A stretch of 64,000 bases of DNA, taken from assembly GCF_044647545.1 (NCBI RefSeq), contig NZ_CP172818.1; one strand, 5' to 3'. Below the pieces are notes generated by a model. It did not search any database. It was not told where the DNA came from and saw nothing but the letters and a program-made list of their open reading frames with translations. Both the position numbers and the translations under genes were made by a program. How positions within the stretch are numbered: the first letter of the stretch is position 1; every line of letters begins with the position of its first letter. Shown here in pieces: positions 3,552-64,000 of this stretch. The DNA comes from Escherichia coli (GTDB taxonomy: Bacteria > Pseudomonadota > Gammaproteobacteria > Enterobacterales > Enterobacteriaceae).

Positions 3552-5525
3552 TCATCTCTGGAACACACACAATCCGTGTGCAGGTCCCTGCCAGACAGCC
3601 GTAATCACTGGGTTATCCTCTCCAGCGAATGGGGGAATGGCGTGCCACTCCCCAGCAGGTAAAACAATCTCTGTTACCTCAAGCGTGGCGTTAATTGCGA
3701 TCAAAAAGCGATCCGAGAGCAGAATTTGCAGCTGTTTCGGCCCGTTTTGCCACTCATCCGTGCTTAAAGGTTGAGCATATCGATTTAGCCAACGGACATT
3801 GCCGTCGCCTTCTTCCCACCAGCGATTCTCCATCAAAGCGGGAATGCGCTTGCGCAGATGGATTAACGCGGCGGTAAATGCGGTTAAACCACTGCTTGCC
3901 TGCGACCAGTCCAACCAGGTTAATTGGTTATCCTGACAGTAGGCATTGTTATTGCCATGCTGGCTGTGACCATGTTCGTCACCGGCCAGTAACATCGGCG
4001 TACCCTGGGAGAGCAACAACGTTGTTAACAGGGCGTGAATGCTGTCGCGCCGCCGTTCAACCAGATCAAGAGTACCGCCTAACCCTTCTTTACCATGATT
4101 GTTACTGTAATTGTTGTTGGTCCCGTCGCGATTTTCTTCTCCGTTTGCTTCATTGTGTTTATGGTTGAAGCAAACGCAGTCGCGAAGCGTAAAACCGTCA
4201 TGCGCGGTGACGAGATTAATCGCGGCACTCGGCAGACGACCATTACGTTTAAAAACATCGCTGGAGGCAGCAAAACGCCCGGCAAACGCCCCCAGAGGCA
4301 AATCATAATGCAGCCAGAAACGACGGGCAGCATCGCGGAAATGATCGTTCCACTCGGCAAACAGCGGCGGGAAATTTCCCACCTGATAACCACCAGGAGC
4401 AATATCCCACGGTTCAGCAATTAACTTCACCTGTGAGAGCACGGGGCAGTTCTGGATAGCGGTAAACAACGGCGCATCCTGACGGAACTCTGGCGTACGG
4501 CCCATGACTGCCGCCAGATCAAAGCGGAAACCATCGACGTGGCAGGTTTCTACCCAATAACGCAGGCAGGCGCAGGCATAATCCACCACCGCCGGATGAC
4601 TCAAATTGAGCGTATTGCCGCAACCGGTCCAGTTGTGATAATCGCCGTCTTCTCTTATCCAATAATAGCTACGGTTGTCGATCCCACGCAGAGAGAATAA
4701 CGGGCCGTCGAGGTCCAGTTCCGCGCTATGGTTGAGCACGATATCAAGAATGACTTCGATACCCGCTTTATGCAGTGCTTTGATTGCATCGCGAAACTCA
4801 TGCAGCGCCGTTTCTGGGGAGCAGGCATACGCCGGATGCAGCGCAAACATCGCCACCGGGTTGTAACCCCAGTAGTTACTTAGCCCCATGCGTTGCAGAC
4901 GTGGTTCACTGGCAAACTGCGCCACCGGCAGCAGTTCCAGCGCGGTAATGCCCAACTGTTTCAAATAGTTGATCATCACCGGATGCCCCAGGGCTTTATA
5001 AGTGCCACGGATCTCGACCGGGATCTCCGGGTGCAGGTACGTTAATCCTTTGACATGGGCTTCATAAATGATGGTACTGCCCCACGGCGTGCGCGGCGGA
5101 GCATCATCCTCCCAGTCATAGTGATCAACCACCACTACGCATTTCGGCGCAATGGCGGCGTTGTCGCGATAGTCAGGTTCATTATGACCGGCGTGCAGCA
5201 GCGGGTTATCTTTAAACTCCCCGTCAATTTGCCGCGCGCAAGGATCAATCAACAACTTCGCCGGGTTAAAGCGATGCCCCTCGGCGGGTTGCCAGGGGCC
5301 ATGAACGCGATAACCATAACGCAAACCCGGACGCGCATCCGGCAGATAACCGTGCCAAATGTCGCCACTGTGCCCTGGCAAGTCATAGCGATGTTCCTGG
5401 CCATTGGCGTCAAAGATACACAGTTCTACCCGCTCGGCATGAGCGGAGAAAAGTGTGAAGTTGACGCCCTGACCGTCGTAATGCGCGCCGAGGGGTGCGG
5501 GTTTGCCAATGGCGAGTTGTGTCAT
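3552..5525 (-). CDS. glgX: Glycogen debranching enzyme GlgX
   Basis: ORF track 657 aa; [31 protein letters not shown]-terminus; GFRFD catalytic region of GH13. Confidence 0.95.
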
Positions 5526-32135: not shown

Positions 32136-32259
32136 AATGCAACGCTGTGAATAAATTACGCACAAAATGTGACATAGAGATGAAATACCGGGAAGAGACA
32201 ACGGGGTCTCTTTCCCTGCTACGGAACCCATTGCAGGGAAAGAGTATAACACGCTTTTA

Positions 32260-36215: not shown

Positions 36216-36474
36216 TATTGGACGTTTGTTAATGCTCTGCGTTTGGGGATTTTTAATCCTCAACCTGGTGCATCCCTTCCCGCGTCCGCTGAATATTTTT
36301 GTTAACGTGGCGCTGATTTTTACCGTGCTGATGCATGGTATGCAGCTGGCGCTATTGAAATCCACTTTGCCGAAAGATGGCCCGCAGATGACCACCGCCG
36401 AAAAGGTGCGGATTTTCCTTTTCGGCGTGTTTGAACTGCTGGTCTGGCAGAAGAAATTTAAAGTTAAAAAATAA
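36205..36474 (+). CDS. yhhL: Small membrane protein YhhL (DUF1145)
   Basis: ORF track 36082..36474; start placed at MLINIGRLLMLCVWGFLILNLV (89 aa); overlaps rsmD end by 11 nt. Confidence 0.8.
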   Translation: MLINIGRLLMLCVWGFLILNLVHPFPRPLNIFVNVALIFTVLMHGMQLALLKSTLPKDGPQMTTAEKVRIFLFGVFELLVWQKKFKVKK

Positions 36475-61612: not shown

Positions 61613-61977
61613 AATCGACCCGCCATAATCCCTGTAAGCAAACGACGCGTGTTACAACTGCCGCCGAACGACGTTCAGCGGATTCTTCCATCCGGGATAA
61701 GAAGGAAACGGCAAATACGACCAGCGCGCAGAGCATTGAGCGCCAACGTGGAAGGCTTAGTGAAAACGGGTAGTAATGTTGTCATCATCAGCATTCCTGG
61801 CCGTAAATGAAACACGCATACTCATAAGTGTGATCTATAAAACTGGCTGACAAAACGGTATCCATCCTGTTGGATAGCGTTTCACGCCTGTTCAGTTGCA
61901 GGAACAGAGCATTCCTTATTACGTTTTATCAACAGTCTCAACCAGATAGTAACATTAATATTCATGTTGTCTATGGT

Positions 61978-63600
61978 TCAGAGCTGTAACATTGTGCGCC
62001 TTCTAATCAAAGGCATAAGTCCATTTTTGTTTTTTTCATGCTGGTAAGACTTCCAGGGAGTGGTTATCTCAGGCCCCGCACCAGGGTTAATTTGGCAATT
62101 ATGCATGCTGAACATTCTTCCAGCATGTTTACTGTCACGGGCGTTAAGACCTAAAACTGTCCCCGTTTCACCTATGCGTTCTCTCCCACCATTTCCGTTA
62201 TGTGCAACAACTTGATTTATACCTAACATTTGTGAGCATGCTAATAGTGCTTCAAGTTTAGGTCTGTAATCTGTCGAAACAGAAAAATAACGATTAAAGG
62301 ATCGACAAGAGATAGCCCGGCTAGTTTTAAACTTTTTACCATTAATTATAGTATGATGCTTTTTATTAATAATTGCCGCTAATTCGACCGGATCGAGAGC
62401 ATTGGTCATTTCATCAATAGAGACTGTTATCGGTCCTATAATGTAACGTTTTCGCTGATCATCAAAAGTTATCCCATGATGATTTGCCATTATTTTGTAT
62501 TTGGGGTCATAGAAACATACAGGATAATCTTTTATCCCGTCGTAGGTATCCTCATCAAGTGGTTTCATACGCGTGAAGTTCTGCATATAGTTACCATTGC
62601 AATTCGTTTCATGATTACCAGCTAATACATGAAAATTTTCATTGATACTCATTATGCGTTTTAACAAATCGATGATAAATTGATCGCCACAGATATTACT
62701 AAATCGATCGCCGGTTTGGTCTCCCAGAAACGTACATGGCGTCACTGCGCCTTTATTAATAACTAAATATGGCTGAATACTTTCTAAAACAACATCTCTT
62801 CTGTTCAGAATACTGATTATTGTATTAACATTAATGTCTAGTTCCTCATTAATGTTTTCCCTTAATAAAACATTGAGAACTTCATCTTCTATATTAAGCA
62901 ACTGGCTAAGAAAATTTACTCCTTCAGCCATAATTCCCAAATGTCCCGTTGCGAAAAGCGCGTACAAAACTGCACCGACTGAGCCATCGGTATCACCAAA
63001 ATAGGTTGGTCTGGTACTTGTGGGATCAACGGGTGAACAATTGGAGAAATAGATTCTGTCAGCGAACTGGGGTTTTATAATTGTTTCGAATTTAATATCA
63101 GATACATTATATTGCGATATTTTCCAGTCCCAGATGGGTTTGTACGACTCAGTAACTGCAACATCATTAGCATTATCATTTACTGTCATATTATTAAGTA
63201 AATAAACAATGCTGCACCAATTAATATCGGTATCATCAAGAGGGCAACCGTAATTTTTACTATTAATTGTCACAATAAACTGATAACTATTATTCCTACG
63301 TAGAATATGGGCACGCATGCCCGATAGCATACTATATTTTTCTGAATGATTCGTTTCTATGGTAAATGAAATTTTGTCATCTTGAAAAGATTGTTGGAAA
63401 CGTTCTATTTGCCAATCATCAATTTTTTCCACAACTTCACCGAGCATTGTCCTGGCAATACTTGATATATCATCACCTATACCATTTGCAATATACCCAA
63501 ACAGTTCTTTAGTGAAGTTAGTAACATGCTCTTGCACCATATCATTTGTTGCGATAGTCGTTATACTGTCGTTAGTGCCTGCCACAGTTCCAAGTTTCAT
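61978..63600 (-). CDS. yhiJ: Uncharacterised protein YhiJ (DUF4049 family)
   Basis: ORF track 540 aa; MKLGTVAGTNDSITTIATNDMVQEHV; AT-rich codon usage suggests horizontal origin. Confidence 0.85.
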   Translation of the reverse strand: MKLGTVAGTNDSITTIATNDMVQEHVTNFTKELFGYIANGIGDDISSIARTMLGEVVEKIDDWQIERFQQSFQDDKISFTIETNHSEKYSMLSGMRAHILRRNNSYQFIVTINSKNYGCPLDDTDINWCSIVYLLNNMTVNDNANDVAVTESYKPIWDWKISQYNVSDIKFETIIKPQFADRIYFSNCSPVDPTSTRPTYFGDTDGSVGAVLYALFATGHLGIMAEGVNFLSQLLNIEDEVLNVLLRENINEELDINVNTIISILNRRDVVLESIQPYLVINKGAVTPCTFLGDQTGDRFSNICGDQFIIDLLKRIMSINENFHVLAGNHETNCNGNYMQNFTRMKPLDEDTYDGIKDYPVCFYDPKYKIMANHHGITFDDQRKRYIIGPITVSIDEMTNALDPVELAAIINKKHHTIINGKKFKTSRAISCRSFNRYFSVSTDYRPKLEALLACSQMLGINQVVAHNGNGGRERIGETGTVLGLNARDSKHAGRMFSMHNCQINPGAGPEITTPWKSYQHEKNKNGLMPLIRRRTMLQL

Positions 63601-63872
63601 CTTTTACCTCATATAATTCACCGCAAGGAATACATAGTTATCATTTAATCTTATGACATACACCTCATGTTCGACGGGAAAATAATTATATTTTGCACAA
63701 ATCATTCAGCCTTAAAGCATAATATGAAATTTCTTATCTCATAGTAGAGAAAGTCCCTAAAGATTGTAGAGGCGTCATCAGTACATGCCTCTACAATCGA
63801 TTAAGAAAAACTATGAAATACTGGCAGGATTAAAAAGACATACCACAGCACTCATGGAGTTTTAATGTGGTT

Positions 63873-64000
63873 GAAAACAACTAAGCCCTGGGACACCTTT
63901 TTTATCACCACGTTCGTTAGGTGCTATCTTCCAGGAATTTAGCCCCATGATATAATTATCAATTTTTTGATGCTGATCTACCCCTAATCCATAATGGCCA
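63873..64000 (-). CDS. 3-prime end of an unidentified minus-strand CDS that continues beyond the window end
   Basis: Open frame on the minus strand from the window edge to TAA at 63873-63875, C-terminus ...NSWKIAPNERGDKKGVPGLSCFQPH; by K-12 synteny this could be the yhiJ paralog yhiL, unverified. Confidence 0.4.

Follow-up and report, generated by a model that had tools for sequence, protein, structure and literature searches.

A perfect inverted repeat between yhiL and yhiJ of Escherichia coli is most likely a 3′-UTR stem-loop at a region of Rho-dependent termination

Introduction

What is the role of a perfect inverted repeat that lies in the spacer between two adjacent genes of Escherichia coli? 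The repeat studied here was picked out in a first-pass annotation, which placed it upstream of yhiJ and took it for a protein-binding palindrome or an RNA structure rather than a terminator, with an operator as the preferred reading. The genes on either side, yhiL and yhiJ, are H-NS-bound, of unknown function and included in LexA-regulon lists; a confirmed hairpin would help to delimit their transcription units. We analysed the repeat in the 64-kb stretch of E. coli DNA in which it was noticed (the window), in other genomes of E. coli and E. albertii, and in relation to published transcript data. Our analysis indicates that it is most likely an unannotated but ordinary 3′-UTR or intercistronic stem-loop without a U tract, located at a Rho termination region.

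Results

The repeat follows the yhiL stop codon

The repeat is found in the 261-bp spacer that separates two co-directional paralogues, yhiL and yhiJ, on the minus strand. The downstream gene, yhiJ (61978–63600, minus strand), encodes a DUF4049 protein of 540 amino acids. Upstream is the 3′ end of a yhiL homologue, also of the DUF4049 family (63862–64000, minus strand; stop codon TAA at 63864–63862), which continues past the window end. The 441 bases from 63560 to 64000 are 100% identical to FDAARGOS_497, in which the yhiL homologue is annotated as an intact gene of 529 amino acids (RefSeq NZ_CP033850.1). Thus yhiL is intact in the window strain, whereas in K-12 it is a frameshifted pseudogene. 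Identity to K-12 is 94.6% in the spacer, 96.4% in yhiJ and 86–97% over most of the remaining yhiL. The spacer does not exceed the flanking genes in conservation; strong divergence is confined to the yhiL 3′ end. An alignment without gaps places the hairpin at 3,632,752–3,632,788 of MG1655.

The hairpin lies 64 nt 3′ of the yhiL TAA, on the same strand. Its other end is 47 nt upstream of the −35 hexamer of a putative σ70 promoter for yhiJ (63685–63715, minus strand), in which TTAAGG (63715–63710) is separated by 19 nt from TATAAT (63690–63685). A constitutive RpoD promoter and H-NS were assigned to the yhiL–yhiJ spacer by genomic SELEX (PMC3946193). The promoter was printed there as TTGACG-19-TATAAT; the K-12 sequence actually reads TTGAGG-19-TATAAT. 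The spacer was also included in a study of ‘promoter islands’ (PMC3661553), and peaks of RpoS holoenzyme from SELEX are listed for the yhiJ–yhiM interval (PMC5493296). A palindrome described as upstream of one gene should first be checked for a position just downstream of another, above all if the edge of the window cuts that other gene.

Reading of positions 63000–64000, together with a repeat finder, confirmed the sequence of the repeat as it had been described. It lies 162–198 bp upstream of the yhiJ ATG, in agreement with the distance of about 160–200 bp given before. The arms are indeed perfect, but they measure 12 bp rather than the 11 bp claimed, one base pair more on each side. Arm 1, GATTGTAGAGGC (63762–63773), matches arm 2, GCCTCTACAATC (63787–63798), at all 12 positions across a 13-nt spacer. 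In minus-strand RNA, which is the sense strand, the 5′ arm reads GAUUGUAGAGGC (63787–63798) and is the perfect complement of 63762–63773. It is followed by the 13-nt loop AUGUACUGAUGAC (63774–63786), by the 3′ arm GCCUCUACAAUC (63762–63773) and by the post-stem tail UUUAGGGACUUUCUC (63747–63761), which is U-rich and contains no canonical terminator U tract. The loop of the K-12 type, AUGUUCUGAUGAC, can add three inner pairs. Six of the 12 pairs in the stem are G–C, and the window has a single copy of the arm sequence.

The repeat exceeds chance and folds stably on both strands

The 64-kb window has four perfect inverted repeats whose arms measure 11 bp or more and whose loops measure 3–20 nt. 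First-order Markov simulation gave a mean of 0.26 such repeats per window, and of 0.015 for the local AT-rich 2.1 kb. The hairpin has a folding energy of −18.0 kcal/mol on the minus strand and is slightly more stable on the plus strand (−19.8 kcal/mol, 14 pairs). Folding in an 81-nt context yielded z = −4.9 for the minus strand and z = −6.5 for the plus strand, and none of 200 shuffled sequences folded as well. Since four repeats were observed against 0.26 simulated, and since folding beats the shuffles, the palindrome exceeds what chance would produce.

A permissive Rfam scan of 63000–64000 returned miRNA and snoRNA matches only, at chance level and far below threshold. We also considered an extended rod in which the stem would be prolonged by the outer helices CAUAGU/ACUAUG and UUCUUAA/UUAGGGA. 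This structure was rejected: most alleles have G opposite G at 63810/63745, and a C-to-A change at 63805 breaks a further pair in eight sequences.

The hairpin accompanies the locus in E. coli, with arm variants that pair on the sense strand

Conservation across E. coli had been proposed as a check of the palindrome. When 5426 complete E. coli genomes were searched with four 49-nt queries, the locus was identified in 4170, and the hairpin was present in each of them. The window sequence itself, with perfect arms, accounted for 724 of these genomes. The K-12 type, whose sole difference is an A-to-T change in the loop and whose arms are likewise perfect, accounted for 2657, so that perfect arms are found in at least 3381 genomes (at least 81%). 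Asymmetric arms, due to C-to-T changes on the minus strand, were present in at least 534 genomes (at least 13%): the innermost C of the 5′ arm, at 63787, was changed to T (GGC to GGU) in 346, and the C at 63769 in the 3′ arm (GCCUC to GCCUU) in 188. Other variants were found in 255 genomes. Three of the four queries matched one place per genome, and the fourth matched 4172 places in the 4170 genomes (median one). Being single-copy, the hairpin is not a member of a repeat family (REP/BIME, ERIC or another MITE-like element).

To this survey we added 90 more spacers of the E. coli type, taken from metagenome contigs and retrieved genomes, which made 91 sequences in all. The C-to-T change at 63787 was present in 22 of the 91 and gives a U·G wobble on the minus strand. 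A third C-to-T arm variant, seen once (sequence L047), also keeps a G·U pair on this strand. Changes that break a pair in the arms (G5 to A and G5 to T) were confined, among the sampled sequences, to single low-coverage metagenome contigs.

The C-to-T arm variants have different consequences for the possible forms of the element. They yield G·U pairs in minus-strand RNA and A·C mismatches on the plus strand, and they break the DNA dyad. The common arm variants cost the minus-strand fold 1.6–2.6 kcal/mol and the plus-strand fold 5.5–6.4 kcal/mol. This pattern, in which G·U pairing is retained on the minus strand only, speaks for an RNA structure on the sense strand; its statistical support is not strong, and the finding that three of the four arm transitions are wobble-compatible is not significant. 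Outside the arms, C/T and G/A polymorphisms were about equal in frequency by manual tally, so a simple mutational bias is not an obvious explanation. Among the 91 sequences, polymorphism affected 4 of the 24 arm sites, 4 of the 13 loop sites and 64 of the other 223 spacer sites, and the arms showed no significant excess of conservation over the loop or the remaining spacer. No compensatory double change was seen within E. coli (91 sequences) or in E. albertii (L004, L005 and L132). Of the two forms first proposed for the repeat, an RNA structure is the one that these results support, and specifically one on the minus strand, where the fold reaches −18 kcal/mol and the variants keep G·U pairs; for the protein-binding form we found no support.

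The arms are degenerate in E. albertii

Members of the DUF4049 family are found essentially only in Escherichia. In species-representative genomes, searches with YhiJ peptide patterns confirmed no relative, and a conserved 20-mer matched unrelated organisms only. The comparison was therefore made with E. albertii. Its yhiL–yhiJ spacer is 356 bp long (L004) and retains the immediate flanks of the hairpin (CTTAATCGAT and TTAGG), the block ATAAGAAAnTTCATATTATG, the −10 element and the Shine–Dalgarno region. In L004, L005 and L132 the arms are degenerate, although the flanks align. The homologous 37 nt are about 57% identical to those of E. coli and fold at about −9 kcal/mol (z = −0.85). Judged from these alignments, the perfect hairpin is specific to E. 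coli, having been gained there or else lost by decay in E. albertii.

On manual realignment, the 3′ arm of E. albertii equals that of E. coli at 8 of 12 positions. In the 5′ arm GAT(T/C)G and GAGG are common to both species, and the TA of E. coli corresponds to CACT in E. albertii. Such a clustered difference is the pattern that would be expected of a single template-switch ‘palindrome correction’, the direction of which an outgroup would be needed to tell.

Three other features of the comparison were noted. About 72 extra nucleotides in the E. albertii spacer lie directly 3′ of the yhiL stop codon. In this species (L004, 1447–4000) a yhiL-like gene directly follows yhiN, with no yhiM between them. 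Finally, the block ATAAGAAAtTTCATATTATG (63718–63737, minus strand), between the hairpin and the putative −35, is the same in E. coli and E. albertii but for one base, and in E. albertii it contains the 8-bp palindrome AATTCATA/TATGAATT. This block is a stronger candidate than the reported palindrome for a conserved site of protein binding.

A published Rho-dependent discontinuity falls inside the hairpin

The first-pass annotation had stated that no U tract flanks the repeat and that a terminator is the less likely reading. The first statement was essentially right: a consensus terminator scan of 63400–64000 found no terminator-like site on either strand, yet the minus-strand tail does contain 8 U in 15 nt. 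By the usual definition of an intrinsic terminator (G+C-rich stem, loop of 3–8 nt, at least 5 U in 8 nt), the hairpin differs in its 13-nt loop and in having three U followed by AGGGAC. The second statement held for a canonical intrinsic terminator. In the broader sense it is doubtful, as the hairpin sits at the position expected for a 3′-end element of yhiL and a Rho region of K-12 peaks inside it.

Adams et al. (2021) mapped 1078 Rho termination regions by DirectRNA-seq with and without bicyclomycin (PMC7815308). Their Supplementary file 2 contains a region at MG1655 3,632,784 on the minus strand, classified as ‘orphan’, with a Rho score of 2.77 (p = 5.2 × 10−6). Coverage there was 73 upstream and 36 downstream without bicyclomycin, and 182 and 249, respectively, with the drug (PMC7815308). 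These published data show a bicyclomycin-sensitive, that is Rho-dependent, discontinuity at the hairpin in K-12. Position 3,632,784 falls inside the hairpin and is the fifth nucleotide of the 5′ arm. The peak was called with 800-nt windows, so that its placement within the hairpin is a single data point of low resolution. According to the authors, the coordinates of Rho regions are likely to be nearer processed 3′ ends than true termination sites (PMC7815308). Moreover, the measurements come from K-12, in which yhiL is a pseudogene, and not from a strain with intact yhiL like that of the window; the frameshifted yhiL RNA of K-12 is untranslated, which invites Rho there.

At 36327xx and 36328xx the Term-seq tables of the same study list no 3′ end (PMC7815308); because H-NS binds the locus and its expression is weak, this absence is uninformative. 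The 100 nt 3′ of the hairpin have 13 C and 18 G and thus lack the enrichment of C over G of a rut-like region, nor is a rut site evident there. C was highest relative to G (ratio 1.25) in the 78-nt segment 63870–63793, which starts a short way upstream of the hairpin and reaches into the 5′ arm.

Hairpins resembling that of yhiL

Dar and Sorek (2018) reported that Rho-dependent transcripts end just after stable stem-loops without U tracts. The stem-loops shield the RNA from PNPase and RNase II; REP elements make up 24% of them (PMC6061677). The yhiL hairpin resembles this class in being stable, on the sense strand, 3′ of a gene and devoid of a canonical U tract; like 76% of the class, it is unique and non-REP (PMC6061677). 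In K-12 a bicyclomycin-sensitive discontinuity, called with 800-nt windows, is mapped at it. Its 13-nt loop and perfect 12-bp stem lie at the long end of the range. It differs from the class in that no steady-state 3′ end is on record for its foot and no C-over-G region follows it, and in that the Rho evidence comes from a strain with a yhiL pseudogene.

Like the intercistronic stabilisers (REP/BIME, malE–malF), the yhiL hairpin is located between co-directional genes, and it could protect an upstream 3′ end and uncouple the levels of the two paralogues. Unlike the multi-copy REP and BIME elements, it is present in one copy. A protective role at 3′ ends was reportedly proposed earlier for REP elements, by Peters et al.

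Within the window, the closest parallel in anatomy is a hairpin between ftsX and rpoH (32208–32244; MG1655 3,600,976–3,601,012), with arms CTCTTTCCCTGC/GCAGGGAAAGAG. It lies 15 nt after the ftsX stop codon, upstream of rpoH. The two hairpins share perfect 12-bp arms, a 13-nt loop, the lack of a U tract and a position between an upstream stop codon and a downstream promoter region; they differ in that the ftsX–rpoH hairpin is of unrelated sequence and has a more G–C rich stem. The tables of Adams et al. contain no Term-seq 3′ end for it (PMC7815308).

The paralogue yhiJ is likewise followed by a hairpin with 12-nt arms, AAACGCUAUCCA/UGGAUACCGUUU (61853–61882, minus strand), which are 92% complementary and enclose a 6-nt loop. 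We counted this parallel in favour of a 3′-end role for the yhiL hairpin. Located between yhiJ, whose stop codon is about 95 nt away, and the small gene yhiY, the hairpin at 61853–61882 ends in UUUU and has the look of a terminator for yhiJ. Two other perfect inverted repeats of the window have 11-bp arms. The repeat at 4142–4176, inside a minus-strand ORF of 657 aa, has a 13-nt loop; the repeat CGCCGAAAAGG/CCTTTTCGGCG at 36396–36427 has a 10-nt loop, lies between convergent ORFs and by this arrangement looks like a bidirectional terminator.

Discussion

We favour the interpretation that the palindrome encodes a sense-RNA stem-loop that lacks a U tract and belongs to the yhiL 3′ UTR, where it would mark and protect the transcript end after Rho-dependent termination. 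We put the probability of this reading at about 0.55. Transcription from the yhiL promoter would pass the stop codon and be halted in or beyond the spacer, largely by Rho. The 3′-to-5′ exonucleases PNPase and RNase II would then trim the RNA back to the hairpin, which would thereby set and protect the 3′ end of the yhiL mRNA and limit read-through into yhiJ. The short UUU and the U-rich tail may contribute pausing or weak intrinsic termination, and yhiJ would be transcribed from its own putative promoter 47 nt further downstream. The data show the anatomy, position, stability, single-copy state and population pattern of the element and, through the published work, the discontinuity in K-12; we infer that the hairpin forms in vivo, that a 3′ end lies at its foot and that the yhiL mRNA is stabilised.

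The alternative that survives best is that the hairpin has no selected function, being a neutral product of a spacer that is AT-rich, bound by H-NS and horizontally acquired. It could stem from a replication template switch that ‘corrected’ a quasi-palindrome, and its conserved look would then reflect young E. coli alleles. The share of polymorphic sites in the arms (4 of 24) is not significantly under that of the remaining spacer (64 of 223), compensatory covariation is absent and the site has no reported RNA 3′ end, all of which would fit such an origin; so would the degenerate E. albertii version, with its clustered difference of the kind that one template-switch event might leave. On the other hand, a perfect 12-bp repeat is very unlikely to arise by chance, both high-frequency arm variants are wobble-compatible on the sense strand, and the published Rho-region peak is inside the hairpin. 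In addition, a hairpin of −18 kcal/mol in a transcribed 3′ UTR blocks exonucleases whether or not it was selected to do so (PMC6061677). We regard a purely neutral origin as unlikely, while giving it more weight than any of the alternatives below.

The hairpin might instead act as a weak intrinsic terminator, which together with the UUU and U-rich tail would release the yhiL transcript without Rho and attenuate read-through into yhiJ. The likeness to intrinsic terminators is evident: the hairpin follows a stop codon and precedes the next promoter, UUU adjoins the stem, 8 of the next 15 nt are U, and in K-12 three extra pairs can close the loop to 5 nt. It departs from them in that the U run is broken after 3 nt by AGGGAC, the loop of the window strain is long (13 nt), the stem is half G–C and the consensus scan was negative on both strands. 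In K-12 the drop in coverage is relieved by bicyclomycin, which points to Rho dependence. Release by the hairpin itself is improbable in our estimate.

We assign a similarly small chance to the operator first preferred for the palindrome, in which the DNA duplex would be bound by a dimeric regulator of yhiJ, or of yhiL and yhiJ together. The 12-bp dyad is perfect in 81% of the genomes, and its distance from the putative −35, some 50–85 bp on the upstream side, is one from which activators can act. Against an operator, the centres of the half-sites are separated by 25 bp, a spacing unusual for dimeric regulators. The arms are asymmetric in at least 13% of the genomes, and in E. albertii they are not conserved, whereas the block ATAAGAAAnTTCATATTATG and the −10 are. 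The spacer does bind RNA polymerase holoenzymes and H-NS in vitro (PMC3946193, PMC5493296); in the E. coli papers found to name yhiJ or yhiL, these SELEX peaks and H-NS are the only binding reported for the spacer, with no specific factor at the palindrome.

Nor does the palindrome contain a LexA box, within three mismatches, or another recognised motif. LexA was considered as a binding factor, yhiL and yhiJ both being in SOS/LexA-regulon gene lists (PMC11002266, PMC6590174), and was rejected: the sole LexA-like site near the locus, TGCTGTTGTTTTTTACAATT (MG1655 3,634,628–3,634,647; L003 5629–5648), is in the yhiL–yhiM spacer and has 5 of 6 core bases. This site probably explains the ‘potential SOS box’ that reviews attribute to yhiL. 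Both genes rise late after ciprofloxacin (PMC11002266); their co-transcription is hinted at by this shared late rise and by their shared place in the LexA-regulon lists.

A more elaborate proposal is that the hairpin is a dedicated regulatory element, specific to E. coli and acquired once this lineage had separated from E. albertii, and that it sets the ratio between the two DUF4049 paralogues. It would do so as an operator for an unknown regulator or as an RNA switch; such a switch would control termination by Rho, RNA processing or the passage of transcription from yhiL into yhiJ, for example late in the SOS response. Taking its two versions together, we consider this proposal doubtful, with a low probability.

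Finally, an antisense hairpin on the plus strand, or the start of a 26-aa plus-strand ORF (63785–63865), seems highly improbable: the fold is slightly more stable on that strand (−19.8 kcal/mol, 14 pairs) and a promoter-like TGCACA-18-CATAAT (63694–63723, plus strand) lies just upstream, but such promoter-like matches are at chance level (3 found, 2.5 expected), the common variants introduce A·C mismatches that cost 5.5–6.4 kcal/mol, the C-to-T change at 63787, a G-to-A change when read on the plus strand, removes the ATG of the ORF, and no plus-strand feature has been reported at the site.

If the 3′-UTR stem-loop were confirmed, it would add one more unannotated 3′-end element to the E. coli map and would be of little importance beyond annotation.

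Other features of the locus

The last ~300 nt of yhiL (63862–64000 and beyond; L001 4303–4602) are only 74.8% identical to K-12, with 24 gap columns, and the boundary of this divergence between the window strain and K-12 is about 64 nt from the hairpin. A 33-aa ORF, MICAKYNYFPVEHEVYVIRLNDNYVFLAVNYMR (63604–63705, minus strand), ends 4 nt short of the yhiJ ATG; in K-12 and E. albertii it is shortened to 19 codons. Its translation is improbable, because the ATG of the ORF is upstream of the putative −10.

YhiJ matched the Pfam family DUF4049 with E = 7 × 10−173. Below threshold, residues 293–391 matched Metallophos (calcineurin-like phosphoesterase; E = 0.0064), and a further sub-threshold match was to the phosphatase domain of Legionella WipA (E = 0.042). 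A GNHE motif is present in the YhiJ sequence (LAGNHETN). By these sequence similarities, the YhiJ/YhiL family may consist of divergent metallophosphatases.
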